Of a stretch of 64,000 bases of DNA, positions 1,114-43,207 are shown piece after piece. The position numbers were made by a program, and so were the translations under genes. Source of the DNA: Glycera tridactyla (lineage: Eukaryota); the NCBI GenBank assembly GCA_965644265.1, contig OZ286470.1, positions 80,290,001 through 80,354,000 of the forward strand, written 5' to 3'. Under the pieces are notes generated by a model. That model was given only the letters and a program-made list of their open reading frames with translations. It was not told the DNA's origin and made no database searches. Position 1 is the stretch's first letter, and every line of letters begins with the position of its first letter.

Positions 1114-2019
1114 TGATAAGTGAAAAATAGTGGTCTGTGTAAAGCATATCTAACTGTGTGGTCAGCTATACAACTGCCACAATATTGGCAACTGGTGTAG
1201 ACCTCAACAACTCTGTTATTCCTGGTTGGGAAATATAATTAAAAGTAGCTCGTTCTATCACAGATGTGTCCAGATCATGACTGGAAGTAACTAACACTTC
1301 AATAAGCAGCCAATTCATTCCTCACTGATGGTAATAGTCCTGCCTTCCATTAGCCTGTACATCTCTGAATGTTACCAGGGCAAGGCATACGTGCATTAAA
1401 TATCATCCAAATAATATATCCATTAAGAGAGAGTGGCTACTGTTTCCTACTCCAGCAAAGGCCAATATTATAATCCATGTTGTTCTGGCGTCCACATGTT
1501 CGATGGTAGCGTTGTCATAGTTGGTGGTACTTGCTGTATGTATACCAATAGCTAACAGCGCTGGGTACTGAATTGGAGCAGTGGCTCAGTAGGGACTGTG
1601 TTCGTGGAGCTGCCAATGACTGTAATCAGATTGTGGCGGCCGGTAGCTTGCATACAAGCCTGCTCATGGACGAGCCAGCATGGGTATTAGCTCACTTAAC
1701 AGTATATATATACAGCTTCTTACTTATTAACAATGAGAACTTCACACACAGCTCTGAGTTCATACTCAGCTAAGCCCTAACAATAAAGGCTCAGGCATGC
1801 ATGAGAAGGTTACCAATATATATGGGGGTACATGAGTACCCCAAATTACAGAAAGAATAAGGAGAATTCCCCACTCCATGTGAGTCCCAATATTGTACAA
1901 ATCACGGGTAGGTAGGGATTCAGGTTTTACCCAACTCATGAATTTTCATAATAGTCAGTCAAGACTAACCTAAGCTTCTCATGCTTCTCAAGCTCTGCTC
2001 ATCAGGTTTGTTGATGCTA

Positions 2020-2230
2020 GTGTTGGCAATCGGTTGCATTTTGAGAATCGATTATCGGCTAGCCCAACCGATCGATTATTAATTATAATCGGTTTGCAAC
2101 ACTGGCACCACAACCACTACCTTGTTTCACCAATGTTTTGTCTCCAGAATCATACATATACATGTAGTATATAGAGCAGTCTCCTAGGGAGTAGGGTTTG
2201 GTATTGGGTGGAGCAAGTTGACAGCATTAT
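2020..2230. repeat. Old dispersed repeat; second copy at ~37141-37520, where it is interrupted by a MITE A
   Basis: Shared TAGTGTTGGCAATCGGTTGCATTTTGAGAATC and GTTTTGTCTCCAGAATCATACATAT blocks. Confidence 0.75.
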
Positions 2231-2853
2231 GACTTCACAGGAGGTTCAATGGCATGAATCACTCCAGAGGTTCATGTTTACCAAAATTAAAAATACACAA
2301 AGCACAATAATCTCCTGCTGCCATTTTCCCCTACTCTGTCACTCCATTGATTTTCCACCAATGAATGGTTGTCAGTAAATTAATCCTAAAAAAACATGAC
2401 TAACTCCCTATCACCAGATTCAGTCTCAAGCAGATTTGACTGTACATGTGAAAGACCTCCATATGAAGGCCACCTGCCTACAAAGGCCTTTACAGACTGA
2501 TTTGACTGTACTTGGTCTATATATGATCCTTTCAAGTACAATCATCTCTGAGCACATGTACAGCTAATGAGGAGCCAGTGGTTGCCTGTCGTGATATAGC
2601 TCCAGTTCATGATCTCCACTCACAAAGTAATACCTTGAAATATAACAAAAGCGTGACTTACAATATCACTACACTTGAAAACTAGATGTATAGGTATCCT
2701 GCTGTGGCACACGCACACACAAATCAACACTGGACATTTCTGTCTTCATTCCATATACGTAGAGACCTCCATCGTTCCAAAATAAATTCATTACATATTC
2801 TGTGCTACCAATGTGGCCCAAAGTACCAAGAAAATTCCACATCTCACATGATA

Positions 2854-3006
2854 CAGTGAAACTGTGATGAGAGTCCCCAAACAAGAGACCACCTCAGACA
2901 GGAGACCACTATGATCTTTTTGACTTCTGATGACCGAAATAATATTTGAGAGACCACCTCATGCTGACAGACATTCAAGGTGGTAACCTCCTTGTAGGTT
3001 TCACTG
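2854..3006. mobile_element. MITE family A, diverged
   Basis: TACAGTGAAAC...GGTTTCACTG with GAGACCACC repeats. Confidence 0.75.
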
Positions 3007-3020
3007 CATCAATTGGGTGT

Positions 3021-3181
3021 CAGTGATGCAAGTGCACTAAGGCACAATTTCCTGAAACTACCCCCATACTTCCAAAAGCACCATATCTGAAACTTTTAGC
3101 ATGATTGCAGAATTTTTTGGATTTTGAATTCTGTGACAAATTTCCTGAATTTCGGAAATTTCCCAAAAAATTGCATCACTG
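3021..3181. mobile_element. Non-autonomous TIR element with 6-bp TSD
   Basis: Perfect 11-bp TIR CAGTGATGCAA/TTGCATCACTG, flanked on both sides by GGGTGT. A related copy lies at ~581-930. Confidence 0.8.
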
Positions 3182-3460
3182 GGGTGTACATACCATCTCT
3201 GATTGGAAGGTAAGATCATTGACATCTCATCTACACTTCTTGTGTAATCATGAAATGCGAGTGTGAAACTCTAACCACTGAGAAAGCTATGGCCATGGAT
3301 ACCTGAAGCATGCGCTGAACAGTGGCACTCACATAAAAGGTAAACATGTAGATCAATGTAAGCCAATGAACCATACATAGACTCATATCAATGTGAACAT
3401 ATGACATTTCCCCCAGGCACTTTCAGTGCAGCATCAGATTTATTCAATATCATGCACATA

Positions 3461-5214: not shown

Positions 5215-6120
5215 CACACTTGGTCATGCAAGACATATTTATTAATGCATGCAATATCATGCTCTTACATCTCAGTGGTCAATTACATCTCTGGACCAAG
5301 GAACACCAATGAATGGCTTATATTTAGACTATGCAAAAGCTTTCGACAATGTTCATATGGAAGGTGAAAGGACATGGTTGACAAATATGACCCAGAATAC
5401 TGAATCAAGTGAGATCGAAAGAGCAAAACATTAGTGGTGGTGAAATGAAAATATGCTCTTTGTTTCATCATGAATCGTCTTGGAACCAAGAACATCATAT
5501 CAACAATTAGCAGTAGTGTCTCACAGGTATCTATGCTAGGACCAGTCTTATTGTCTTAATTCTATAAAGGATCTGGATACAGTGATCTGATGAAATATCC
5601 TCAAGTTTGCCCTGAAATTGGAGATCCAACATGCAAGGCTGGACATATGCAAACAGATCTTCTCTGTTTGAGCCTTCTGAGTACGGAACTAGCTGCCAGA
5701 GCATGTCGTCAATCACTGTTTGAGTCCTCTGAGTACGGAACTAGCTGCCAGAACATGTCGTCAATCACTGTTTAAGTCCTCTGAGTACGGAACTAGCTGC
5801 CAGAGCATGTCGTCAATCACTGTTTGAGTCCTCTGAGTACGGAACTAGCTGCCAGAACATGTCGTCAATCACTGTTTGAGTCCTCTGAGTACGGAACTAG
5901 CTGCCAGAGCATGTCGTCAATCACTGTTTGAGTCCTCTGAGTACGGAACTAGCTGCCAGAGCATGTCGTCAATCACTGACTGAGTCCTCTGAGTACGGAA
6001 CTAGCTGCCAGAGCATGTCGTCAATCACTGTTTGAGTCCTCTGAGTACGGAACTAGCTGCCACAGCGTGTCGGCAATCAGTAAAGTGTGAATGAGTTCAA
6101 GAGCAGCATCGACATATCTA
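5215..6120 (+). pseudogene. Degenerate CR1-type LINE ORF2 relic
   Basis: Collinear RT motifs SCKTYLL, YLDYAKAFDNV, VSQVSMLGPVL and IKDLD, then C-terminal LP..VGN..SVNEFKSSID, with stops and frameshifts. Confidence 0.75.
5670..6080. repeat. 52-bp minisatellite, ~8 copies
   Basis: Unit GAGTCCTCTGAGTACGGAACTAGCTGCCAGAGCATGTCGTCAATCACTGTTT starts at 5670, 5722, 5774 ... 6034. Confidence 0.97.
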
Positions 6121-6959
6121 TCCAGTCTGTGATAGACAGAGGAGCAACAAAGGGCTACCTGCCCTCTCGCTCCTAAGAGCAGAAACTTTCAGACTGCATT
6201 TCAGGTGATTTCAGGAAAATATGCGAGAGAATAGTGAATGGGCGAGAAACACAAGTGGATCTTGCCACCCTAGACTGAGAATATTGTATCCAGGTTTCCA
6301 AAATTGGGGCAATTTTGTTCCCCCTTTGAATTCCGGAAAATGGGGTACTACTGAACAAAATTTCCCTTCATGGTTGCACTCAATATCAGAAAGTGTGGCT
6401 CTTATGTTTATTGCCAGGACAGGATGGATGATCAATAAATTGCATCAACTGCATGCATAGGCCCATTGGGATGCAACCCTACTTTCGGTCATTTTCAGCG
6501 CTCAGCTGGCCAATCGATTTATTGTAAAACTAATTTTTCAACAGTGCTGTATGTTGCTACCTGTGGGTAGAAATTTACCCTCTGGCTACAGTATTTTGAA
6601 AGTTAGGAGTCAGCAGGCCCTAAATTTTGAGAGGTTGCAGTTGGCTCCCAGATATCCCAGAAAACATGAATGACAGATGAATCTAATGTGAATTTTCACT
6701 TGAACCACACTACTCTCTAAGGACATCAAAAACATTTATATAAGTGTCACAGGTGAATGAGTAAGGATCTACAGAAGTCCAATCACGGAATAGCATGAAC
6801 AAACATCAACTAAAAGATAACAATCTACCAAACCTATGTGAAAGCTCAACCACTCTAACCACATCAGTTTAAATGCATCCGGCTACTCAATCAAGGCACA
6901 GCTCACCTGTGTGAGCTCACAATTGACTCAATAACCACATGAGCAGTAACCTATCTCAA

Positions 6960-15751: not shown

Positions 15752-16748
15752 CTGAAACAGACAGAATCATGCCAATAATCAGAGAGTGATTTGACATTCA
15801 GTGCCGCATCACATACTACTAGACATCTCTCCAGAGGTTTGATGAGTTCATGTAGTATTGCAAATCTTGTGTTGCAAACTTGCAACAGTCATGCCTTCAT
15901 TCTAAAACATCAATCCACCTGAATGATTAGTAAAAAGTGTACAAAGAATCAACATAAAGCTGATAAGAAAAATGATGATAACACTGTGGTCAACATCGCT
16001 GATACAAGAGATTACACCTTGAGTGTCTGTGTTTTTCATAATCTTGAATCACGCCACCCATGCCAATTGCATGTACATGGGCATCCTAATTAGCCCAGAT
16101 GGTGATGATCAACCAACCAACCTCACCCCCAACAGAACCGCAACCATCGCCTGATGCCATCAATAGGTGTATCATTTTTATGTAAAGTAGGTAGGGGTGT
16201 GTCTGAACTGTCAGCTACTTCCACTTGACAACCTTTCAGGTTCGTCATCTTGTGTTCAAGGTTTGTGAGAGAGATGTCTGTAGCGGAGAGAACATCTAAC
16301 TTTCATTAACAAGGAACACATGGCATACATAACCCTAGGGTTGATACATGTTCCACCTCAAATAAACAAACAAACAGTGCCTGAGCCCTACCTATGATCT
16401 CAGATTCTTATCTGAATCAGATGTACACAGAAACTGCCATCTAGTGTTGATGGCATCAAGTAAAGTTTGACTTTAATCCCACCAGTCTGCTGAAGCCCTG
16501 CCCTCCTGCATATAACCATAGACATAATGTTTAGGGATTATACAGGGTCTCATACTCGCCACAATATTTGATATGTACCAGTGATACCCCATGGAAATCA
16601 ACACATTTGAGGTGTAATAACCCTGATAATACGCTATCCATTTAAGATCACATTCAGCAACTGCAGTGATGCACTGTCTCACATTGAGAACGATACCTGT
16701 GATGGCTTACGAGGAATTTAAATTATATGCATCTTCAATTTTCTATTA

Positions 16749-17101
16749 CAGTAAAACCTGTCTTGGGAGACCGCCCCTAACGCCAATGAAAAGCGGTCTC
16801 TCAAGACAGGTGGTCTCTCTTTGGAGGTATATTTGACTCTTTCAAATAGAGAAGAGCAGATGAAGAGTGGTCTCCCATTAGAGGGTGGTCTCCCAAAAGA
16901 GGGGTCTCCCAAGACAGGTTTCGCTGTATTCCCAATATATATACAGTCAAACCTCCCTATAAAGACCGCCCTTGGTCGCATAAAAAGCGGTCGTTATAGA
17001 GGTCATTTACTGTTGAAATTACTACCACGGTTGCAGTTGAGGGTGGTCTTTATAGGGAGGTGGTCTTTATAGAGAGGTGGTCTTTAGAGGAGGTTCGACT
17101 G
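16749..17101. mobile_element. Adjacent MITE A (16749-16926) and MITE B (16944-17101)
   Basis: Both have intact TIRs and TA flanks. Confidence 0.85.
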
Positions 17102-18311: not shown

Positions 18312-18513
18312 CAGTGGCAGTGGCGGTAGCAGTGGCAGCAGTAGTCAAGATAAGGTAAGAGTCGTTTATTTGACTTTGAAGCATACATCATAATACATGT
18401 ATAAAAGCAAAAGTGTAGGCAATCACAGTATCCTGTCTACATGCGCGAGGAGTAGGACGCGACTCACATCGGAGCTAGGGCTTTTTGACAATTTCATATC
18501 TTAACAAGAGAGT

Positions 18514-21006
18514 ATGCCGGCGACAAAGGAGAAGAAAGTTCGTAAGGCCACAGAGAATACAAAGGTCGACGACGGAAGCGATTGTGGAGCCAGCAGCAAG
18601 GATATTTCTATACATAAACGAAGAGACGGGCTGCGAAGTAGTCGAACAAAGATGGCCGACGAGGTCCCAAACGTAGAAAACGAGGGGGCGAAATCAGGTC
18701 ATACAATGACTTCCGATACTATGGATAACGCCGAAGTAACTACAACAGCCAAAGGAATATTATCACCCCAGTTAACGGAACATACAAATGAAATGACCAT
18801 CGGAACTGTGAGTAATGCCTCAAATATATCATATGAAAACTCGATTGAGTTGGATAGTTCGTTTACGTCAACATACAGTACAAGTCTAAATATGATGCAG
18901 ACAAACTGTGACAATAACAGAGACACTCCCTGTGAGGGTCAAATTCAGCAAGACATAGAAGAGGGCCCAAAAGATACTGCGAAAATTGATGACCATGCAA
19001 TCGAATTTGCACAGGAGGTACATGAAGGATCATTTCGAGAAGAAAAAAGACAACATTGTAAAAAGCAGAGAAATATGTCCGAGAATATGTCTGAAAGTAG
19101 TGAAATTGATCCCAGTGATAGCAATACCGATAGCCATGAACTAGCTGAACCAAATCTGTCAACCGTGGAAATGCACCCTACATACACGTCAACTCAAACC
19201 ATCGGACAACAAGAGAATCAGTCACCCGTGTCAACAAGAATCAACATACATGACATGACCCCGGAGGAACTATTAAATATAGAAGATGAATCACAAGTGC
19301 AGTTAATGTCTGACAATCGGGATGGTTCCAAACAGAAAAAGGAAATCATGCATAAAACAATGAAACAAATGTTTGAGCAATATATGACAACAACAGATTT
19401 TAAAAATCAAATGGCAAAAGAAGTTAAAAACCAACTCGAAAATGAAATCATTCCGTATAATGGGAGGAAGGAAGTAATGACAGAAATAGCAACGCAAGCC
19501 TGTAAAACATACGTGGACAATACAGTTCCTGACATGATCGATGTAAAACAAGTAATGTTGAAAGACAGTATAGACACCAAGTTTCACTCGATGGATCAGG
19601 TGTTGGTTACAGCAGTAAAAAGCACATGTGATGAGCATTTGACCAAAAATCTTCCCAGCAAGGTATCGGATGAAATGATGGAATTCAAAAGTGATTGGTT
19701 AAAGTGTGTGGAATCATATGTGGATGATTCAATTGAACTGGCTGCAAAGGAATCAAATGCTGAAGTGCTACGAGGAGTAAACGAGTTGATCAAAATTGTT
19801 GATCGACATGAGGATATGCTCAAAAATTCAGACAGTAATATTGCTAAATGGATGGACCAAATAAAGCAAGAATTACACACAAGAAGCTCAGACACGACAC
19901 CAAGTAACATAAAGGAAACAGTGATGAAATTCATAAATGAGGTGACATCTTTAGAGACAAGGGTGACTACAAATGAGACGAGCATCGTGGGTCTCGTACA
20001 GAGAATGGATGGTACTGAAATAAATGTCGACCACCTACAGAAAAGTGATCGTTTAAATATCATCATACTTGAAGGACTGCCATATATCAAAGAGAAGATC
20101 CTCATTGACCAGGTACTTGAACTGATAAATGGTCGAACAAATTTGGGATTAACTAAATCAGATATTGTCCAAGTGTCCAGAATGGGACCCCCTGGGACTG
20201 CAGACAAACCTCAATCAGTAAAAATACGCTTTGCACATGGTAACATTCGTAAGGATATACTAGTGCGAAAAGGAAATGTGAAAGGATCGAAACTGTTCTT
20301 CAGGGAGCAACTTACCCCAAGAGAAAATGACATTTTTCAGAAAGCAAGGACAGCACGAACAGAAGGAATACTGGACAGTGTATGGACTCGAGATGGAAAA
20401 GTATTTGCTTCGATGGACAAGAAAAATGCAAAGATTCCTCTCTATTCGATGGGGAAAATTGAAAAACTATATGCTCAACGTACAGAAAAAAAGACAAGTG
20501 ATGAAGTCCAAACAAAATCACAAAACACAACCACCACTGATGATGGGCGTGAAAAAGTGAATACTACGGCTGCCCCCATGAGGAGAGGGAGGCATAAACC
20601 AGGACATGGGCAACGACACACAAAAGAGAAATTATCCCAAGACCAACCAAGTGAGATGGTGGATAAAGGAGAAATAAATCTATCAGTTTCTATGACCTCG
20701 CTAGGCACAAACAGCTCGTGCCCACAAACTGATCCTGCGAACAAGGAGTCATCTTTATTGAGGAAATGGCTAAAATCTATTGAAACATTACCACGACCAA
20801 AATCAGTAGACGATCTAATGATGACACCTGGCGGAAGCACTCAGAAACCGATAGTACCAGTCGATTCCGCTAACGCGACCGATCAAGGTTTCGAGAAACC
20901 AAAGAAAACTTTTCCGATATTTGGCGGCTGTACTTTAGACCGCGATAAAGGAACGCCGACATCAAATATGTATGATAGACTTAAATCGGATGCGGAATTA
21001 AAATAA
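18514..21006 (+). CDS. LINE ORF1-type protein: disordered N-terminus, coiled coil, RRM-like domain and FP-C-like CTD
   Basis: 830 aa open. NIIILEGLP...KIRF...FFREQLT...KAR...VWTRDGKVF is the motif series of L1-type/CR1-L2 ORF1 proteins. Confidence 0.88.
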   Translation: MPATKEKKVRKATENTKVDDGSDCGASSKDISIHKRRDGLRSSRTKMADEVPNVENEGAKSGHTMTSDTMDNAEVTTTAKGILSPQLTEHTNEMTIGTVSNASNISYENSIELDSSFTSTYSTSLNMMQTNCDNNRDTPCEGQIQQDIEEGPKDTAKIDDHAIEFAQEVHEGSFREEKRQHCKKQRNMSENMSESSEIDPSDSNTDSHELAEPNLSTVEMHPTYTSTQTIGQQENQSPVSTRINIHDMTPEELLNIEDESQVQLMSDNRDGSKQKKEIMHKTMKQMFEQYMTTTDFKNQMAKEVKNQLENEIIPYNGRKEVMTEIATQACKTYVDNTVPDMIDVKQVMLKDSIDTKFHSMDQVLVTAVKSTCDEHLTKNLPSKVSDEMMEFKSDWLKCVESYVDDSIELAAKESNAEVLRGVNELIKIVDRHEDMLKNSDSNIAKWMDQIKQELHTRSSDTTPSNIKETVMKFINEVTSLETRVTTNETSIVGLVQRMDGTEINVDHLQKSDRLNIIILEGLPYIKEKILIDQVLELINGRTNLGLTKSDIVQVSRMGPPGTADKPQSVKIRFAHGNIRKDILVRKGNVKGSKLFFREQLTPRENDIFQKARTARTEGILDSVWTRDGKVFASMDKKNAKIPLYSMGKIEKLYAQRTEKKTSDEVQTKSQNTTTTDDGREKVNTTAAPMRRGRHKPGHGQRHTKEKLSQDQPSEMVDKGEINLSVSMTSLGTNSSCPQTDPANKESSLLRKWLKSIETLPRPKSVDDLMMTPGGSTQKPIVPVDSANATDQGFEKPKKTFPIFGGCTLDRDKGTPTSNMYDRLKSDAELK

Positions 21007-21498
21007 AATAATCCTTCAACATAATTGCAGCAAATTGCAAGCTGACGGAAGAATATTAGAATACCGGCATTAATGTATGAAATGGCCCAAGTGCGAAATT
21101 GATAAATGAAACCTAAACGTCGACCACGAGGCTACTAAAGAGGATTCCTCGGACGAGTGTTTAAATCGAGAAATACGATGAATTCGCTATATCATATATC
21201 AGCAATAGATGTATTCGAAGATGAAAAACCGACGGACAACCCAGTAAGTACTTTGCGAATGGGTATTTCACCATGAACAGCGCAAACACGGACTAACGGT
21301 ACATACATGGGCAACGCGCATTTTGTGCCCTGGAATGAAGCGATCTCTAGTATGGAAGATTGAGGGCAAAACGACACTTGGGAAATTTATTTAAATAACT
21401 AGTATTATTTTAGTATTATTTTAATATTTCGGTGAACAGTATAACAAACGTGTCTTTAATATCTGTTATAGGCAACGGCCGATGAAATTACAGCACAA

Positions 21499-22458
21499 AT
21501 GAATAAGCGCCTACAAGCAGCCGAAACGATGAGTCCAATTTTCGAAAGGAAGAGGCTGATGGATCAACTGGAACGTCCAACTGTATTAGTGATTGGATCA
21601 AGCCATGTCGTAAAAATGGAACAAAATTTGTCATTGATATCGTCTGAATATGTGAAGGAGTATCTGAAAAGTTGGTATTTCTTTGGTATTAGCGGCGCAA
21701 AATGGAAAAGCTTCGAAAACGAATTCGTAGGGGTGTTTCCGCCAGGAATAAGAGGTCACAGGCATGGTAACACATTGGTGAAGATCCAAGGAGAATGTCC
21801 AAACCCCTCCTATGTGATCATACTGATCGGCTCAAATGATGTTGGGGACTTTCAGTCAAATCTCTGGAGGACCCTACATAAAGACCCTCGAGTAGAGAAA
21901 AGAAGAGTAGAGACATACCAAGAGGAATTCCTGAATAGTTTGAAGATCAAAATCGTGGGATGTATTAAAATGTTACGCCTTTTGTTTCCAAATTCTATAC
22001 TCCTTTATCCACCAATCTTATGGCGCCCAACATGGAAGAAGGCCACCAAGCAAATTGCACGAAGCATCGACATTTTTCTTCAGAGCAACTGTAATGATGC
22101 ACCAGAAAATGCTGTAAAATTCGTGTACACACAACGACTATACAAGACAATGTTCTGTAAAATCATCACCAAGCATGGTTTCAAAGCATTGAAGAAAAAA
22201 ACTTGTCCTCGGCGAAGAGCAGCTGGCGAAATCATTGATGGATTTAATAATAAGGACAAGATACACCTTACTGGTCATGGATACTGTACGATGATGTTCG
22301 AATTGATGGGATCTGTCTACACCCATTGGATAGCGAAACATGAGTTCAGCATTGTGAAACCTCCATCAAGACAAGCGAGACGAAGAAAAGAGAAGAAATC
22401 GAGAAGAAATGAAAACAAAGATCAAAGTGATGACATCTCGATGTGGTTGGAAATATAA
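21499..22458 (+). CDS. SGNH/GDSL-like hydrolase (esterase)
   Basis: Block I VIGSSHV, block II FGISGA, block III IGSNDV, block V DKIH; basic C-tail RQARRRKEKKSRR. Confidence 0.85.
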   Translation: MNKRLQAAETMSPIFERKRLMDQLERPTVLVIGSSHVVKMEQNLSLISSEYVKEYLKSWYFFGISGAKWKSFENEFVGVFPPGIRGHRHGNTLVKIQGECPNPSYVIILIGSNDVGDFQSNLWRTLHKDPRVEKRRVETYQEEFLNSLKIKIVGCIKMLRLLFPNSILLYPPILWRPTWKKATKQIARSIDIFLQSNCNDAPENAVKFVYTQRLYKTMFCKIITKHGFKALKKKTCPRRRAAGEIIDGFNNKDKIHLTGHGYCTMMFELMGSVYTHWIAKHEFSIVKPPSRQARRRKEKKSRRNENKDQSDDISMWLEI

Positions 22459-22469
22459 ATAATGTGACC

Positions 22470-23330
22470 GGAAACTAGGGAAACCTAATGCCTGGTCTAT
22501 GTCATTATACAATACATGTGCATTGATATTGAGTTCAAATTGAAAACTTGGAATATTGTAATGACTGTATTTTGACATTGAACTGGTGCAGAGTTATAGT
22601 AATGAAATAGCACAAATGGAAAGCGTATGCACTGATGTGCCAAGCCAATACAATGATATCTAGATGTGGTTTGACATATAAAAAGTACATGACAGGTAAC
22701 TGGGGAAGCCCAATGCCTGATCTACGTGACCAAGTGATATTTGTGCCCTGATACTGAGTTTAAAATGTGAAATGTCTTGATGTGGTTTGACATATAAAAG
22801 TAAGTGTCAGGAAAATAGGGAAACCTAATGCCTGACCTACGTGACCAAATGATATTTGTGCACTAAGACTGGGTTAAAATGAGAAATGTGAAATCGACAA
22901 ATCTGCATATTACCATGAAACTGGGGAGACCCAATACTTGGGAATGTGAAACCATGATCTTGAACCTGATGTGAGTATAATTAGGATGACAAATTTATCA
23001 TGGAAATCAAAGGTACTGACATCTGTAAGTTGCCATGAAAATAGGGAAACCTAATGCATGGTGACAAAAATGGATGAACATTTCAGTAATGATATGACAA
23101 TACTTGTGAAAGCGAATCCATGATCTAAATAAGATGAGAATATAAGTTTGATGACATGTTTCTCATGAAAATCATATGCGTGGATGTCTGCCAGTTGTCA
23201 GGAAAATAGGGAATCCTAATGCCTGGTGATATATGTAGGTGGATATACTTGTGATGATAGGTTTCTCCTGAATATTATATAAAATTGCCAACCAGGAATC
23301 AAGGGAAACCTTATGCCTGGTGTAGTGCTT
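22470..23330. repeat. Diverged repeat array 1 in the LINE inter-ORF spacer
   Basis: GGAAAATAGGGAAACCTAATGCCTG-like motif near 22470, 22695, 22810, 22917, 23037, 23201 and 23301; includes a ~115-bp tandem duplication. Confidence 0.8.
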
Positions 23331-23699
23331 GCTGAAGTTATAACAAGGGCAATTGTTGAGTTTGAACAGAATTGGGATGCTGTGATTACTAACAGGAGGA
23401 CTTAGATCATGTTGCACTGTATTCCAAATATTATGCTACTACAAGCATGAGACCAACTAACACGATATTGGGAAATCAAATGTTTGAGAGTGGTACACAT
23501 GTGCTATGCAGGTTGCAGAGAATAGGGTTATATATATTAAAATCTTAAAGTATACACCAATCTAGTAGTTGTAATGTCCACAGGTGTCCACTCAGATGGG
23601 TATGGGTGTAGAATTGGGGTGAATAATGCCCACTTAATGCCCACTCTTTGACAATTATAATGAGCGAACAACGAAGTCTGATAGAGCATATTTGGAAAT

Positions 23700-24125
23700 G
23701 GATTTTCCCATCTTCATTTACTTTAGAAAATTATTGCTTTTGTATTTTCCCATCTTCATTTACTCTAGAAATTATTGTTTTTGTTGGAAATTGTGAATTT
23801 GGTTTGTACTTCCGGATGGTCAAATGACCTTCGTCAGATACCTATACTTGTTTTTGTTTCATGCCTGATTAGCATATACTTCTAGAGAGATTAATAATTG
23901 ATAGTTTCTGTTGGAAAATGTAAATTTGATTTGTAATTACAGATATTTAATGACAATTGTTGATAACTACACCTGCTTTAGTTTCATACCTGATTGGCAA
24001 ATACCTCTAGAGAAATTACTATTTGATAGCTTTTGTTGAAAAAGGAGAATTTAGTTTGTAATTCTGGATGGTTATATGATTATTGTCTGATGCCTATACT
24101 TGCATTTGCTCATGCCTAATTGAAC
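23700..24125. repeat. Diverged repeat array 2 (~125-bp unit x3) in the LINE spacer
   Basis: Recurring TTTTGTTGGAAA...AATTTG.TTTGTA...TTTCATGCCTGATT...CTAGAGA blocks. Confidence 0.75.
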
Positions 24126-24698
24126 ATGGTGAAATGACCCAAAGCAGGTCAATGGGAAATCTCAAAAACGTTTTAATAATATGTTGATGTTCTAATAAAA
24201 TGTTTAGGTTTTTAGTTAGGTTGATTATGGTTAAAATTTAAAATTTAATTAATCGTTATTGTTATTGTTTGGAACCTAGTAAGCACAAACTAATGTGAGA
24301 CTATCTGGGATATGTCAATTTTGATCTTTCAAAATGTCAATTTTGATCTTTCATAATGTAATAAGTTAAAAGGAACCTAGAAACATCTGCATATGGTACG
24401 AAAGTCTCTGGGAACAGAAAGTTTGGACCAATGCAGAAAATAAATATTGGAAACTTTTGACCTTTGATTTTTGAAATACTCTATATTATCTAAAATAAAA
24501 CATGATAGCCCAGCTCCTACTCAAATTTGAAAACCCAATTCATCGACATTAATATCTTGTGTATATTTGTATTGATCAACATTTGGTTTAGAAAAGCTAA
24601 CAAAGTTAGCCATTCTTGATTCATTTCATCTCACCAAATCATCAAATGACCCAATAGAATATGATAGATGGAATACCCTTGATGTATTTAATGGACCA

Positions 24699-27600
24699 GT
24701 GACGCCTGTCTACCCAGAGCCCCAACAACCACACTACCAACAACTTCCTCGACATGTACCAAGAATCTCGCCTGAAACAATATCAAATGTATCTTGTTCA
24801 AAAGACTTAAGAGCTCTAAATGGGGTGAGCATTGCATATCTAAACGTAAGAAGTATTGTAAGAAAATTGCCAGAAATAAAAATCCTACTTTATGAGAGTA
24901 ATATAAATATCTTAATTCTTGGCGAGACTTTTTTAAATAATTCAATTGACACTGGAGAGCTTGCTATTCCTGGGTATAAAATAATAAGATCTGACAGAGA
25001 TGGAGGCTCTGGGAGGAGGGGAGGAGGTGGTCTATTGATATATTACAGATCAAATAGAGTATTGGAATTCCTGCCAGACTGGAGTATGTGTAATCAAGAC
25101 CTTGAATGTGTATGGGCAAAACTTTATCTTCCAAACACACGTCCGACATATATTTGTGGTATATACCGTCCCCCTAAGGGAAACCCCAAATATGCACTTG
25201 ATATTTTGGACAACAAGCTAGTTGACATTGCTAGTATGGGGTTGAATGACACCGTAATATTGGGGGATGATAACATTGATATCTCAAAAGACATCAAAAA
25301 CAAGAAGATGATAAAAGAATTTTGCTTTTCGAACCATTTGGACCAATTAATACAGCAAAACACTCGAGTGACCCAAAATAGTCAAACAAACATAGATCAT
25401 ATATATATATCAAATAAAGAACAATATCGTATGGCTGGTGTCCTGGATATAGGAATCTCAGATCATGCAATGGTATATACCACAAGAAAAAAGGAGAGAC
25501 AGTCAAAGAAGAGTAAATATATTTATTTGAGAAATTCTAAACAAGTAAATTATAAAAAGCTTTGTGAAAATATTGAGAAACATGGTCTTGACTGTGTGTT
25601 GGAAGATGATAGTCTGTCCTTTGATGAACAAATTGTTAAAATATTTGATTGTATTAAAGAAGAAATAGACAAATCCATGCCTCTAAAACGGTACAAAGTC
25701 AGAGAGCTCTGTCCTGAGTGGATCACTGGAAACTATCTCGATGAAGTCCGAAAACGTGAAAGAGCAAGCGAACTCTTTAGGAAGTCACCGTCTGCAGAAA
25801 ATCTGGCAAAAAAAGAACAGCTGCAAACAGAAACCAAAAGAATGAAACTAGAATTACAGCGTACATATTTAGATGAAAAGCTAGCATTGTACAAAGGTGA
25901 CTCTAAAATGACCTGGAAAATAATAAGACAATTTTGGAAAAATGGGAAAAATAAAATTGAGATTACAAAGATTGAGGAAGAAACTGATCCTGCGGAAATC
26001 CCAAACCATTTAAACGACCATTTTGCCAATATTGGGAAAAAACTATCGGAGAAGATCGAGAAAGAAAAAGGTGATCCACTTGGTTGTTTTATGTATGATT
26101 ATAATGACATATTCAAACTGAAATCTGTGAGTGAGAGTGATGTGTACGATCTTGTGAAAACAATCAAAGTCAACAAAGCAGGACGTGATGATGGAGTACC
26201 ATCTAAAATTCTATATGAATGTATTTCTGTATTTGTGCCTCTGCTGACAAAAATTTTCAATGCCAGTATAGAAAAGGGTTTATTTCCGGAAATGTGGAAA
26301 GTCGCTACCATTGTTCCATTGTACAAAGAGGGAAGTCATTCAATATCAAGTAATTATCGACCTATAAGTTTATTATCTGCAACTAGCAAACTACTAGAAA
26401 GACTGATCCACACCCAAATCTATGATTTTGTGGAGCGCATGAATCTGCTGTGTCGGGAGCAGTCTGGTTTCCGGAAGGGTCGTTCCACTGGGACTTGCCT
26501 GTTGGACTATTTGGATAATATCTATCTAAATGTCGAGCAGGGGAGGGCCACTGGAACGATCTCTCTGGACTTAAAGAAGGCTTTCGACACGGTAGATCAT
26601 GCGCTCCTATTACAGAAGTTGAAACGATATGGATTATCTGCCAACTGTGTGAAATGGTTGAAAAGCTACCTGACCAAACGTCTCTGTGAAACAAAAGTTG
26701 GGAATCATGTGTCTACAAGTTTGCCTGTCGAGTGTGGCGTCCCTCAGGGATCAATTTTGGGACCTCTGCTATTTACATTGTACATAAATGATCTACCAAG
26801 TTACCTGCGGGACGCCATAAATCCTACAAACTCGTCAAAGTTGTCGAATGAGAGTAATGTCTGTACAAATATTTCCACTCACTTATATGCAGATGATACT
26901 GCTGTTAGTCTATCAAGCAACTCACCACAGGATCTTGAAAATGGAATGACAAATATTTTGGAATCAGTAATAAAATGGATGAAACAAAATAAACTTTCTT
27001 TAAATTTAAAGAAGACATTTCTGATGACATTTGGATTGCCGAGTAGGATAAGAGATTTCAAAGAAATAGTAGTGCAGGCTGGAGGTGAGAGGCTTGAGCA
27101 ACAGCAGTATACAAAATACCTAGGCATTGTATTGGATCCAACCCTAAGTTATCATCATCACGTGCAGTACCTACAATCTAAGACAATAGGTAAGATTGGT
27201 ATGCTTCGAAGACTTAGACCCTATATAAGTAAGGATACTGCACTGATGTTATACCAATCGCTGATACTGCCGATATTAGATTATGGAGATGTTGTTTTCA
27301 ATAGTCTGTCACAAAGAGACGCCTATACAGTTCAAAAAATTCAAAATGCTGCATTACGATGTATAAGTAGAAAACCAAATAGATACAGTACTTCTACCTT
27401 ACATACCGAATTGAATTGTCAATTATTAATAGATCGAAGGCGAGAGCATGAGTTAATTCACGTACAAAAAACCCTAACTGGAAAATTTAAATCCCTTCCG
27501 CTATGTGAATTACACATAAGTGGACATACTCATGATACTAGGTCAAGGGATCGGGATTTTTTGAAAGTTGAAAAACTAAAATATAAATTTTCTGAAAAGA

Positions 27601-27716
27601 ACTTTCGCCATCGATCTGCAAAGAATTGGAATGAGTTGATAAAATATCACCCCGAGGTTGAGGAAATGGAGACATCAGGTTTCAAGAAATTTTTGAAGGA
27701 ACTTCGAATTTATTAA
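24699..27716 (+). CDS. LINE ORF2: APE endonuclease + reverse transcriptase
   Basis: EN motifs YLNVRS, LGET, IYRPP, GDDN, IDHIY, SDH. RT motifs NYRPISLL, QSGFR, DLKKAFD, GVPQGSILGPLLF, YADD. The frame is open from 24576. Confidence 0.97.
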   Translation: MTPVYPEPQQPHYQQLPRHVPRISPETISNVSCSKDLRALNGVSIAYLNVRSIVRKLPEIKILLYESNINILILGETFLNNSIDTGELAIPGYKIIRSDRDGGSGRRGGGGLLIYYRSNRVLEFLPDWSMCNQDLECVWAKLYLPNTRPTYICGIYRPPKGNPKYALDILDNKLVDIASMGLNDTVILGDDNIDISKDIKNKKMIKEFCFSNHLDQLIQQNTRVTQNSQTNIDHIYISNKEQYRMAGVLDIGISDHAMVYTTRKKERQSKKSKYIYLRNSKQVNYKKLCENIEKHGLDCVLEDDSLSFDEQIVKIFDCIKEEIDKSMPLKRYKVRELCPEWITGNYLDEVRKRERASELFRKSPSAENLAKKEQLQTETKRMKLELQRTYLDEKLALYKGDSKMTWKIIRQFWKNGKNKIEITKIEEETDPAEIPNHLNDHFANIGKKLSEKIEKEKGDPLGCFMYDYNDIFKLKSVSESDVYDLVKTIKVNKAGRDDGVPSKILYECISVFVPLLTKIFNASIEKGLFPEMWKVATIVPLYKEGSHSISSNYRPISLLSATSKLLERLIHTQIYDFVERMNLLCREQSGFRKGRSTGTCLLDYLDNIYLNVEQGRATGTISLDLKKAFDTVDHALLLQKLKRYGLSANCVKWLKSYLTKRLCETKVGNHVSTSLPVECGVPQGSILGPLLFTLYINDLPSYLRDAINPTNSSKLSNESNVCTNISTHLYADDTAVSLSSNSPQDLENGMTNILESVIKWMKQNKLSLNLKKTFLMTFGLPSRIRDFKEIVVQAGGERLEQQQYTKYLGIVLDPTLSYHHHVQYLQSKTIGKIGMLRRLRPYISKDTALMLYQSLILPILDYGDVVFNSLSQRDAYTVQKIQNAALRCISRKPNRYSTSTLHTELNCQLLIDRRREHELIHVQKTLTGKFKSLPLCELHISGHTHDTRSRDRDFLKVEKLKYKFSEKNFRHRSAKNWNELIKYHPEVEEMETSGFKKFLKELRIY

Positions 27717-29407
27717 TTTATTAATTTATTAATTTAGTCTCCATCTACTATGTCATACGTCATACTTCCCAGTTCTCTGTTTCCTTCTTTGTTCTCTGTT
27801 TCCTGCTTTCAATTAAGATAGTATATCAGAAAACATTTATTTTCAAACAACCAGGGGTAAATTCCATGAATATTATAATCAAGACAATATAAATAGATAC
27901 ATACATGGGTCAATCATCATCATCTTCATCACTTATTATTGCATTATCATTAAAATTCATCATTATGTACTCATCTACATTGAACATCATATTTTATGTT
28001 TTTGTTATATCTATGTCGTCATCCTGAAAACGATTTTGTTCTACCTTATGTTTTGACGAATAGAAATAAAGTTATTTGAATTGAATTGAATTGAATGTAC
28101 ACATAATAGATGGCATATGCCCGGGACATCACAGATGGATGCATTCACCCGTTTCGAAGGTTCGCACGACTGGCAATACCCAGGACCATTATACTCATTC
28201 ATTACTAATCGATCAAGATCTGATTACAGTTCCTCTGAAGTGATTTCATATATAAATTGTTTCAATCTTCTAGCAGAATTTTTCTTCTGTTGTCACTTCA
28301 GTTTCTATTTAGCCACAACCAAAGCTCCTTTTTAAATGTGTTTATTTGGTCAAGTTGTTGTACTTCAACTGGCAACTTATTCCATGTTCTAGGACCATGG
28401 GTCGAAAAGTTGTGGTGGTGGTGATGGTGGTAATAGTGGCAGTGGTGGTGTGCAAGCATGGAAAGTCTTCATCAATCGGCCATGTAATCAAGTGCACATC
28501 AGAGTACAGAGAGCGCAGGGGGAAACAAGTGCTTTCCCACACTGCCACCCCACTATCCAAGGACTAGTATTTATGACTGATCTAATCTGGCAACCCACCC
28601 TAATTCAGACATGTATCATATACAGACTCATACTTGTATAGATAATGCCTCTCATCCGATTCCTGCCAAGTTGTGCACCTGGACTGGTCATTATTGCTCT
28701 TGTTGCCTGCTACATCATTAATATTGACCACTTTCATCGCATGTTGAACACGAGCAATTACTCAGGATGGTTTCTGAGAATGTAATTTGTACATTCCAAT
28801 GGTGTATATTTCCATTCTAAGCATCTCCCATTGAGTGGAAATTTCACAAATGATTTGAACATGAGTGTGACTGGATGGGCAACTGGGCCTCTGGGTGTCT
28901 GTGTGAGGAGTGGGGTGTGCTCCTGGCTGGGTATTAACTGTTTCTTGAAGCAGTCTGCATAGTTCAGTACACAAGACAGCTGTTGGCGCCATGCTGTGGA
29001 TCTACCGTATTCTCCCTAATTAGCACCCCCACCCTAAAAAGCCCCCCCCCCCCCCCCCCCTCCCGCGGGAGAGAGAAGTTGCCGACTTGCTTTGATAGTC
29101 TCTCCTTCCTGCTTGATATTTCCACTGTTTTCGGCGAATGTTCAACGGAATTGAGAGATTTATGCATGGATACCACACGCTTTTATACCCTGAAATTCAT
29201 TTGCACAATCGTTTTCACTGTGAGTTCGATATTTCATGGGTTTTAATTGCGGCAAACTTATGTCTGAAAACACGGGATTGACTTGTCAAAGTTAGAATGG
29301 TTATGCAGACGCCGCTGTTTATCACCATCCATTTGACAAATATTCGTCGTATCATCGTAGTTTTATCAGTTTTTTCTCCTATATGACACAAATGGAGACC
29401 AAGTAAT

Positions 29408-29830: not shown

Positions 29831-29897
29831 CAAGTAATATATGTTTATCGAATGTTTCTTTGATATTTCACCAGCCACTGGCGTTATGTTTGCCAAA

Positions 29898-31198
29898 ATA
29901 CAGTGTTGTACTATACGGGCAGTGATGCTAACCATGTTGAATTACAACTCCAAGAAGATTTGAACAATGTTGAACACTGGCTGCGTGCAAATAGGCTCAC
30001 TTTGAACGTGAAAAAGACAAAGTCTATGCTGTTTCACACTAGTAGCTATCGAGGTATAAAAACTCTTGATCTGGAGATGAATTTTGAGAAAATTGAACCA
30101 GTTTTTGTCTTTAAATATCTAGGGGTATACCTGGACCCAACCATGAATTTTAACCATCATATTGACCAGACAATCAAGAAAACCAAGAAACGCCTTGCTG
30201 CCCTTGGTAGGGTGAGGAAATTTATTGACAAAAAACTGTGTCTTATGCTATTTCGTTCACTTGTGGTCCCACATTTTGATTTCGCTAGTATAATCTATGG
30301 TGAAACCTCTGCCAGTAATTTGAATAAATTGCAAGTTCTTCAGAACAGGGGACTAAGAATGGTCAACCAATCTGATAGGTTCAGTTCTGCTCGTGAATTA
30401 CATTTGGAGCTAAAGCAACTGACTTTAGCAGAGCGCAGGAATTTTCATTACGCAGTTTTCATCTATAAAATCAAACATGGTTTGGTTAAATCAGACTTGC
30501 TAACTGGCATGTTTGAACAGGTGTCCCTGATGCATGCTCACCACACTAGATCTGCTGGAAATGACGATTTTGTTGTTCCTAGAACGTATACCAATTATGG
30601 TATCAAATCTTTACTTGTAACTGGTGCAAAGATCTGGAACAATTTGGATGTTGACCTTCGCAGATCCAAAAGTCTGAATATCTTTAAGAACAATTACTGG
30701 AAGTCGAGACCTGCTCGGTTCATGATATTAGATAGCTAACAACTACTTCACCATTTTACTTTTCTTCGTTATTTCTCTCTCGTCACTATTCAGAATATAT
30801 CTGTGAAAAGCAACTCGAGTAATTTTCATACGTATTTGTATCTAGCCTTCCCAATAACCTTTGCATGTCTCTTTGCAGTCCATGTATAAATCTGGATCGT
30901 TTTACTGTAAACTGAATGATATCCGCCTATACTACCCTTTCCTCCAAAGCACGTACCATTTTCCTTGAATATTCTATAACCGGTTGGTTGAATTGATCAC
31001 TGAAGCCAAACATATGGTATTAATATACTAATATGATGAAACATGACTAGAAGGTTTATGGTATCTGGTGGTAGCCGAGATCAGCGCTTTTTGCTGGCAT
31101 ACTTCGCATTTTTATTTGTGTTTTTTGTACTTTGAAATGTTGCTACATTCGCCAGAGTAAATAAAGTTTTTGTCATACTGTCATACTGTCATACTGTC
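29898..31198 (+). mobile_element. 5'-truncated CR1/L2-group LINE, a different family from the 18-28 kb element
   Basis: ORF 29903-30739 is the post-YADD RT C-terminus (WLRANRLTLNVKKTK, FKYLGV, IWNNL). AATAAA at 31160, (TGTCATAC)3 tail, possible AAATAC TSD. Confidence 0.92.
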
Positions 31199-32987: not shown

Positions 32988-33326
32988 CAGTGTAACCTGC
33001 GACGAGAGACCACCCTGAATCTCACAAAAAAGGGTCTCTCAAAAGAGGTGGTCTTTTGTTGGAGGTACAGTCAAACCTGTCTATAAAGACCGCCCTCGGT
33101 CGCATTAAAAAGTGGTCTTTATAGGCAGGTGGTCTCTATAGAGAGGTCATTTACTGTTAAAAATACTACCGTGGTCGCAGCTCAGGGTGGTCTTTATAGA
33201 GAGGTGATCTCTATAGAGAGGTGGTCTTTAGAGTAGGTACGACTGTATATTTGACTCTATCATTCCGAAAAGCTACCCTGCACAAGCAGTCTCTTGTCAG
33301 GGGGTCTCTCATCACAGGTTTTACTG
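32988..33326. mobile_element. MITE A with nested MITE B (33068-33245)
   Basis: GGAGGTA|[B element]|TATATTTGAC. Confidence 0.88.
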
Positions 33327-33950: not shown

Positions 33951-34957
33951 CAGTCTAACCTGCTCTAATGACCACCTCTCTATAACGACCACCTCGCTTC
34001 AACAACCACCCCTGACCGCGACCAAAGTATTTTTCACTATAATTGACCTCTGTATAGCGACCACCTGCCGACTCCGACCAGCGAACGCCATGTTTGGTTC
34101 CCGAACATCCCTATAATGACCGCCACGGCCGTATCCAAGACCAGGAAATGTGCTCAGTTTGCCTGCTCGCTGCTTGCATTCTTACCGCCATTCCCTTCTA
34201 ATGACCGCCCAGTGGCCGGCCGGGATTGTCTTTACTCGAGCCCGTGATATGTGCTCAGATCAGCTCACTTGCTCGCTGCATACATCCTAGCTTACCCCCT
34301 TCTAACAACCCCCGTGGCCGGCCGAGATTGTCTTTTCTCGAGCCCGTGATATGTGCTCAGATAAGCTCACTTGCTCACTACATACATCCTAGCTTACCCC
34401 CTTCTAACGAACCCCGTGGCCGGCCGGGATCGTCTTTACTCGAGCCTGTGATATGTGCTCAGATCAGCTCACTTGCTCGCTGCATATATCCTAGCTTACC
34501 CCATTCTAACGACCACCATGACCTGATATGCTCAAATACGAATTGAGCAGTCAATTTTGTGAGTGAAACACGTCCAAATTGTGAACTTTATCAACCTGCA
34601 GACGAGCACCTGTTCATACTGACATAAGATGGCAACGTACATCCGGGTCTCACAAATCGTTACCATTATTTCAAATGAAATTCTTTCATATTTCGTAAAA
34701 TTATCATCAAAGCGCAAAAGATCACCTGCTAGAAGCTCTCAAATTGTCTTCATATTCGAAAAAATGCGAACAATATATTTTGTTTGCTAATCCGTATTCG
34801 TGATGTTTACAAAAATGGCGGACAAGAATTCTGCTGTTGGCGAAAATATCGATACAGACGTGTGTATTTTTCATCTGAACCTCTCTATAACGGCCACCTC
34901 TCTATAACGACGACTTTGGGTGCGACCAGAGGTGGTCGCTATAGAGAGGTTCGACTG
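33951..34957. mobile_element. ~1-kb non-autonomous element related to MITE B (family E)
   Basis: TIR CAGTCTAACCT/AGGTTCGACTG; CGACCACC repeats; internal 102-bp unit x3 at ~34193-34512. Confidence 0.8.
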
Positions 34958-42866: not shown

Positions 42867-42898
42867 CAATTGATCTACTGGTCGGCACAGTCAAATAG

Positions 42899-43045
42899 TT
42901 AAAATTGAGACATGCCTACAACCAAATTAAAACTGAGACATGCCTAAAACCAAATTAAAACTGAGACATGTCTACAACCAAATTAAAACTGAGACATGCC
43001 TACAACCAAATCGAAACTGAGACATGCCTACAACCAAATTAAAAC
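42899..43045. repeat. 28-bp minisatellite, ~5.3 copies
   Basis: Unit TTAAAACTGAGACATGCCTACAACCAAA. Confidence 0.95.
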
Positions 43046-43207
43046 CCGAATTTATTCTGTGACATGGGCAATATCACCGATGATATCCAGAATGCACAAC
43101 TCCACATTGAAGGATTCTGTTAAATTAATGGGAGCCATGTCACCAGACAAGTTGAACTGGTTCGAAATTGTTGATCTTTTTGATCCTGCACATGCATATT
43201 TGATGTA

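Follow-up and report, generated by a model that had tools for sequence, protein, structure and literature searches.

The mRNA of a LINE is also the template from which the element is copied, so that any intron spliced out of that mRNA should be erased in one round, and to our knowledge LINEs are not thought to divide their RNA, in the manner of retroviruses, between a spliced and an unspliced form. The locus described here, in a stretch of 64,000 nucleotides (the window) which is part of a 2.04-Gb assembly, raises the question of whether a coding intron can persist in such an element. The original prediction placed an intron inside a retrotransposon, where it would join an upstream AUG exon to an esterase frame, being retained in the transposition template and removed in order to express the esterase.

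The esterase gene is carried by a full-length three-ORF non-LTR retrotransposon, the parts of which are collected in Table 1. Its dispersed copies have the 3' end in common, differ in their flanks and are in some cases 5'-truncated (L045 starts just past ORF1), and no terminal repeat (LTR) of the element is present among the window repeats listed. The gene order is ORF1-esterase-pol wherever the parts are present (121 loci), with ORF1 missing from some copies through truncation or insertion and pol unseen within the stretch in one copy, and the spacer between esterase and pol measures approximately 0.65-3.8 kb in the relatives shown.

Table 1. Features of the window copy of the element; positions are those of the window.
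Feature	Positions	Strand	Size	Description
Full-length three-ORF non-LTR retrotransposon	18440..28096	+	approx. 9.66 kb	5' end common to independent copies; common 3' end
ORF1	18514..21006	+	830 aa	coiled coil + RRM + CTD, L1 ORF1p (Tnp22) type
Weak cryptic donor within ORF1	20888..20893	+		AG/GTTTCG, phase 1
Gap, ORF1 stop to exon-1 AUG	21007..21177	+	171 nt	four upstream AUGs (uORFs of 6-10 aa)
Esterase exon 1 (AUG mini-exon)	21178..21243	+	66 nt	22 codons
Predicted intron	21244..21471	+	228 nt	phase 0, GT-AG (U2-type)
Esterase exon 2	21472..22458	+	328 aa	SGNH/GDSL hydrolase, blocks I, II, III, V
Esterase-pol spacer	22459..24575	+	2.1 kb	non-coding, internal repeats
pol ORF	24576..27716	+	1046 aa	APE endonuclease + RT
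Hairpin at pol start	24596..24610	+	6 bp, 3-nt loop	candidate pol initiation element
3' end	28065..28096	+		AATAAA, then (TTGAA)4 microsatellite tail without poly(A)

The pol ORF matches the Pfam models Exo_endo_phos (E 7e-6) and RVT_1 (E 2e-40), as expected of an APE-type LINE, and the (TTGAA)n tail is a short tandem repeat of the kind found in the CR1 group, within which a poly(A) tail is described as unique to Zenon (excerpt of PMC13343379). On tail and domains, the element is likely to belong to the CR1 group (CR1/L2/Daphne/Crack/Kiri); the RT search included one coral match labelled 'jockey'. The AF2 model of the ORF1 core (residues encoded by 19846-20475) has a pLDDT of 83, its top Foldseek matches are the human L1 ORF1p structures 2ykq/2yko (E 8e-7), and the predicted fold corresponds to the type II (Tnp22/L1-like) architecture of coiled coil, RRM and CTD. 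The Pfam Tnp_22 models gave no match to ORF1, a PDB sequence search with the ORF1 profile returned nothing useful, and Baculo_FP_2nd was found in ORF1 of 28/39 members, below curated certainty. Exon 2 matches Pfam Lipase_GDSL with 23.5 bits against a cut-off of 23.6 (E 7e-5), its AF2 model (pLDDT 92) has a fold matching PAF-AH/GDSL, and the catalytic motifs are kept in 96-98 of 99 intact copies. By blocks I (Ser), II (Gly), III (Asn) and V (D-x-x-H), together with this modelled fold, the predicted product of exon 2 is an SGNH hydrolase. A PDB sequence search with single proteins returned nothing useful, and no retrotransposon esterase was present among the PDB matches listed.

In the window, the ATG at 21178 opens 22 codons up to CCA/GTAAGT at 21244, exactly as had been reported, and the 228-nt stretch that follows ends in ...CTGTTATAG, with the acceptor AG at 21470-21471. 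The description of this stretch as AT-rich in its 3' half and interrupted by several in-frame stops was borne out: its 5' half has a GC content of 46% and its 3' half one of 26%, and 7 stops interrupt the donor frame. The 328-codon esterase frame opens at 21472, precisely where the stretch ends, and the join is in frame and in phase 0. The end at 21498 given originally for the feature is arbitrary, exon 2 extending to 22458.

The original prediction allowed this in-frame fit a 1-in-3 chance; the counts across the family are far beyond it. The protein search scored 122 of 3,244 candidates, of which 120 were fetched as 10-kb loci and analysed together with the window copy (n = 121), forming 47 clusters at 80% and 17 families at 60% esterase identity. 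RT identity among 39 representatives is 48-97%, and the lower end of this range implies that the intron is old. For the acceptor test, the best acceptor close to where the esterase begins was chosen blind to the reading frame and its phase was then scored, and for the donor test the best donor 150-480 nt upstream was selected and an open in-phase AUG was sought 60-75 nt before it. The acceptor was in phase 0 in 113/121 copies, 45/47 clusters (80%) and 16/17 families (60%), compared to 43/121 and 37/121 in control windows, leaving 8/121 failures. The AUG was present in 94/113 copies, 39/47 clusters and 16/17 families, compared to 2 and 7 of 113 in shifted frames, and five of the 19/113 failures in this test carry a longer in-phase exon of 93-96 nt. 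Since the 60-75 nt window was picked after the data had been seen, with donors scored by a matrix, the later copy sets matter. Among 30 new loci the acceptor was found in 27 and the AUG exon in 24, and among 60 more, fetched once the rule was fixed, a phase-0 YAG was found in 59 (control phases: 3 and 14), at the identical codon in 56, with the AUG exactly 66 nt before the donor in 50. The stretch that bears the splice signals is a family-wide, ancient feature, and the conservation of GT/AG among copies, originally suggested as a check, holds for donor, acceptor, phase and AUG exon alike.

The donors among the 94 copies were mainly GTTAGT (28), GTATGT (22), GTACGT (13), GTAAGT (12) and GTCAGT (8), with G at position -1 in 84/94, and the acceptor lies in a context of a T-rich tract followed by YAG, AG being depleted at -25 to -3 before it (8 versus 24 of 41); a GT donor with the +3 to +6 consensus, a T-rich tract and a YAG acceptor correspond to the U2 type. 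The intron is 200-441 nt long in these copies, and up to approximately 500 nt over all relatives, and is open in the donor frame in 0/94, and its interior is without conserved sequence, the identity between copies being 0.41-0.54 versus 0.47 when shuffled (11 disjoint pairs). Exon 1 is 66 nt long in 73/113 copies and 69 nt in 17/113, and 11 disjoint pairs gave a pN of 0.23 versus a pS of 0.76, in the predicted frame only, with 65/45/125 differences at codon positions 1/2/3. Judging from these substitution patterns, exon 1 is under purifying (coding) selection and the intron interior is not, and on the sequence evidence the stretch probably functions as a spliceosomal intron. One subfamily, comprising L124, L132, L135, L148, L158 and L279, has an exon 1 of greater length (93-96 nt, phase 0).

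The AUG of exon 1 lies close to the stop codon of ORF1, an apparent coupling in most families which the original prediction overlooked. The ORF1 stop could be placed in 81 of the 94 exon-bearing copies; the two codons overlap (AUGA/UAAUG-type) in 16/38 clusters, and are at most 20 nt apart in 33/38 clusters and 16/17 families. As the distances occur in all three frames, reinitiation would be favoured over frameshift or readthrough, and a fusion of ORF1 to exon 1 by either of the latter was rejected for the same reason. The UGGGA motif of TURBS is characteristic of termination-reinitiation of the calicivirus type, and a TURBS-like UGGGA upstream was found in only 1/41. The exception is the family of the window copy, with a gap of 164-180 nt, 1-6 upstream AUGs and no stop-start coupling. 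The median read-in from exon 1 into the unspliced intron is 9 codons. In 11/47 clusters exon 2 is without a Met upstream of block I (7 even when the open intron frame is counted), so that these clusters, having none before the catalytic serine, need exon 1; the claim that the intron must be removed to express the esterase is shown strictly for them only. In the window copy, a shorter esterase could start from Met codons inside exon 2.

Outside this genome, a word-based homologue search with the esterase found nothing, and a profile search retrieved 131 relatives, 82 of which have a recognisable block I, with 37 of the 82 reaching position -42. The pair [FLIVCY]Q stands exactly at -42 from the block-I Gly in 11/37 and in 0-2 at other offsets, which is explained by a CAG acceptor read in frame, and 12 other outside relatives have the length of an uninterrupted product. 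The acceptor position is kept in distant outside relatives with an esterase identity below 30%. At the corresponding codon, six of nine metagenome loci have a phase-0 YAG, which lies two codons earlier in one and is absent in two; the phase-0 AG at that codon is missing from L305 and L308. AUG exons in phase 0 were found in L309 (24 codons) and L311 (27 codons), L310, a copy with stops, pairs a phase-2 donor with a phase-0 acceptor, and neither L313 nor L307, where pol lies downstream of the esterase, yielded a convincing exon 1. The exons of L309 and L310 resemble the N-termini of the uninterrupted proteins P0142 and P0168 (shuffle p 0.001-0.003, 55 comparisons); that of L309 aligns to them without gaps (p 0.002-0.003), and these proteins come from mRNA or intron-less DNA. 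A G000 mini-exon profile gave no match among outside N-termini (best E 0.09). In L308 and L310 the acceptor or donor is one base off (phase 2), a possible case of intron sliding or of simple decay.

Intron-less copies, whose presence had been proposed as a check, were sought by a pairwise gap scan of the 121 ten-kb loci and in all fetched loci, giving ~232 contexts (172 distinct plus 60 later) which represent a fraction of the 1,972-3,244 first-look candidates and are biased to intact copies. The canonical exon 1-exon 2 junction (21243-21472) was found in 0/~232 sampled copies, and all but one of them keep the intron, in agreement with its supposed retention in the template. The one exception, L057, involves another donor, within ORF1. 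Compared to its sister L056 (98.6-99.2% identical, on different contigs), L057 has lost exactly 554 nt, from an AG/GT inside ORF1 (window equivalent 20888, with a matrix score of -1.4 versus 3.6 for the main donor at 21244) to the homologous esterase acceptor, and among the gaps listed this alone ends at the predicted acceptor. The 5' and 3' ends and the rest of pol are present in this copy (G000:C1, minus strand; with L285), which lacks exon 1 and in which ORF1 ends out of frame with the esterase. From its structure, L057 is probably retrotransposed spliced RNA, which would mean that the acceptor was used in vivo; a deletion by template switch is a possible origin, the deletion ends sharing a 2-nt AG microhomology. 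A ~4-kb insertion, the ends of which are repeats of ~185 nt containing a 62-nt inverted repeat, later split L057 within pol. Provided that most genomic copies are products of one round, the count of 0/~232 would mean that canonical spliced insertions make up about 1% or less, which suggests that spliced RNA is excluded ahead of insertion and not that such copies are removed by selection afterwards.

The reading that we favour, with a probability of roughly three in four, is that of a real spliceosomal intron in one transcript with two jobs, the spliced RNA giving rise to the esterase and the unspliced RNA being the form that is copied. Ribosomes ending ORF1 would reinitiate at the exon-1 AUG, as in SART1, a step suggested by the overlap or close spacing of this AUG and the ORF1 stop in 16/17 families. 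The spliced RNA would then yield a 350-aa SGNH esterase, and the unspliced RNA, on which the exon-1 AUG of the window copy opens a 32-aa peptide stopping in the intron, would yield only this peptide. Spliced RNA would mostly be barred from reverse transcription before insertion, most simply if splicing is inefficient or confined to certain tissues or stages and if pol, whose translation would begin at its own hairpin, binds in cis the unspliced RNA from which it is mainly made. This exclusion is the weakest step of the mechanism, and in the family of the window copy a reinitiating ribosome has 171 nt and four upstream AUGs to pass. That the intron is 'regulated', as originally worded, is something that we infer.

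The main rival accepts the intron and assigns the esterase to a separate short RNA without the 3' tail that reverse transcription requires; this RNA would derive from an internal promoter after ORF1 or from splicing coupled to early polyadenylation as in the Arabidopsis copia element EVD. A short RNA would account for the zero canonical spliced copies in ~232, it has a precedent in Ty1/Copia (part of PMC5580714), and a separate start would suit the 164-180 nt gap with upstream AUGs in the window copy's family. However, the AUG lies no more than 20 nt from the stop of ORF1 in 16/17 families, which points to polycistronic RNA. Downstream of the esterase stop there is no enrichment of AATAAA as an early poly(A) signal (17 versus 20 for TTTATT) and L057 points to acceptor-spliced RNA spanning the 5' end to the 3' end, which together weaken this explanation to the point that we consider it unlikely.

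It is less probable still, and in our view improbable, that most families splice an ancestral intron while the window copy's family uses an in-exon Met or the ORF1-internal donor instead of exon 1. The 171-nt gap with its four upstream AUGs would fit such disuse, as would the Met at residues 9 and 20 of exon 2 (a further one is at residue 30), and the only apparently spliced copy, L057, belongs to this family, skips exon 1 and has its ORF1 stop shortly before Met20. Exon 1 is nonetheless in frame across both subfamilies, with 73% nucleotide identity (window copy versus L051) where the intron is at the shuffled level, and among 13 intron-bearing close copies inspected by eye the donor is kept in 12/13 and the AUG in 11/13, the AUG being lost only in L009 (where ATG ACG keeps the upstream ATG).

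That cryptic splice-like sites arose by chance in an ordinary intergenic spacer, the 22 codons being a uORF, is very improbable. It would agree with the lack of a branch-point signal, YTRAY being present 15-50 nt before the acceptor in 13/41 versus 16.3 when shuffled, a motif that is weak in many animals, but phase, position and exon length are fixed over 17 families and outside relatives with controls near chance, and exon 1 appears to be under coding selection, so that the counts largely refute it. Least credible is a non-spliceosomal joining of the coding pieces by ribosomal bypassing or self-splicing, which would need no nuclear RNA sorting and would account for full retention in genomic copies, but which is at odds with ends that fit the U2 donor/acceptor consensus, with an interior of such variable length and no conserved sequence, and with the loss of the GT-AG stretch from L057 at the nucleotide level.

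With regard to known systems, retroviral env is made from spliced RNA and the unspliced RNA is the genome, in LTR elements with capsids, and cryptic splice sites are present in ZfL2-1. Splice sites have also been reported for TART (excerpt of PMC1636488). The CR1/L2 esterase-ORF1 LINEs (e.g. zebrafish ZfL2-1) are likewise APE-RT LINEs with an SGNH esterase upstream of pol (excerpts of PMC3905857, PMC4120745 and PMC13343379), and share the catalytic S, G, N and D-x-x-H motifs with the Glycera element. Those LINEs as a rule have two ORFs, the esterase being the product of ORF1, whereas the Glycera element carries the esterase as a gene of its own, split by an intron, beside an L1-type ORF1 with an RRM; its ORF1, being separate from the esterase gene and pol, is not of type IV (esterase). 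In the excerpted texts, all esterase-containing ORF1p in Repbase are said to be devoid of an RRM (PMC3905857), and esterase ORF1s are described only from two vertebrate subgroups, CR1 and L2 (PMC4120745; also PMC13343379). The excerpts of PMC3905857, PMC4120745 and PMC13343379 hold no mention of splicing for esterase LINEs, and those of PMC10294476 and PMC5408684 add no splicing for LINEs.

The R1-clade LINE SART1 likewise has a UAAUG stop-start overlap after ORF1, but there the overlap starts pol (part of PMC3894237) and in Glycera it would start esterase exon 1; in about half of the Glycera clusters the spacing of stop and AUG is 4-18 nt rather than a SART1-type overlap. The L1 SpIREs are inserted copies of spliced LINE RNA, as L057 apparently is, and L1 splice sites are reported to inhibit retrotransposition and to give dead ends (part of PMC5860796); unlike in SpIREs, the main intron of Glycera is ancient, in frame and apparently needed for a protein. 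Penelope-like elements also keep an intron through reverse transcription, which is termed highly unusual among retroelements, but they belong to another class (GIY-YIG, pLTR) and their functionally studied introns are in the 5' UTR (part of PMC8557442). In the Ty1/Copia element EVD, gag is one protein made from spliced RNA and the unspliced RNA is the genome; EVD is an LTR element with a capsid in which splicing is coupled to early termination (part of PMC5580714), and no such signal was found in the Glycera element.

In the published literature no three-ORF or intron-split esterase LINE was found; Repbase/Dfam lay outside this search, and a prior annotation there is possible. On balance we lean towards an undescribed, old lineage of three-gene LINEs which extends beyond this species, with a cap-dependent ORF1, a stop-start-coupled esterase with an obligatory intron and a hairpin-started pol often without AUG, and in which spliced and unspliced RNA must be told apart before reverse transcription. 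The position and phase of the coding intron have stayed fixed across RTs down to 48% identical, and its survival implies a way of keeping spliced RNA out of reverse transcription; if such sorting is true, the element would be the first LINE to select its 'genomic RNA' in a dedicated step. The selection of LINE RNA (cis preference, export, germline splicing control) thereby becomes testable in a natural system. Two ORF1 types thought not to co-occur, the RRM type and the esterase, are joined in one element, and the esterase is suggested to be an accessory protein with controlled dose or timing, providing a handle on the role of retrotransposon esterases.

The window pol has no AUG before its APE domain, the first Met being at index 170 versus 88 for the APE motif. 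The hairpin at the pol start was found in 40/43 cluster representatives (L050-L156 homologues), with an in-frame AUG 11-17 nt later in 21/40 and none within 60 nt in 18/40, and it is followed by a TCATC-rich tract. Its pairs 3-5 switch between A-T/G-C/G-T, T-A/C-G/T-G and C-G/T-A, in a set which was selected as hairpins and is biased accordingly. This structure is a candidate AUG-independent or IRES-like initiation element. An ORF1-pol fusion by splicing, from the 20888 donor to an AG at 24590-24591 (both phase 1 in the window copy), was rejected, since in relatives this site has AAG or lacks an acceptor, the hairpin standing in its place. Strong acceptor-like sites 0-120 nt past the esterase stop were observed in 17/47 representatives versus 7, 2, 7 and 9 in later windows (L064, L072, L081, L094 and L102, among others), and are absent from the window copy's family; an esterase-skipping splice is a possible explanation. 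A GAAACCT(A/G)A motif (~21108-21117) is present in the post-ORF1 gap of both subfamilies of that family, and recurs in the form of dispersed GGGAAACCTAATGCCTG repeats in the esterase-pol spacer (22477-23320).

Several other repeats were observed. A 291-codon C-terminal RT fragment at 29864-30739 is apparently a 5'-truncated copy of another LINE, and dozens of dispersed MITE-like repeats of 100-200 nt, rich in GAGACCACC/AAAGACCACC, are present in the window in both orientations (e.g. 628-809, 16747-16928, 33065-33254 and 51957-52145). Tandem arrays occupy 5557-6128 (unit of 52 nt), 42871-43073 (28 nt) and 34208-34523 (102 nt). L120 contains, at 2500-2923, an inserted repeat of at least 424 nt with at least 20 near-identical (98%) genome copies (L231-L252), which suggests a recently active element.
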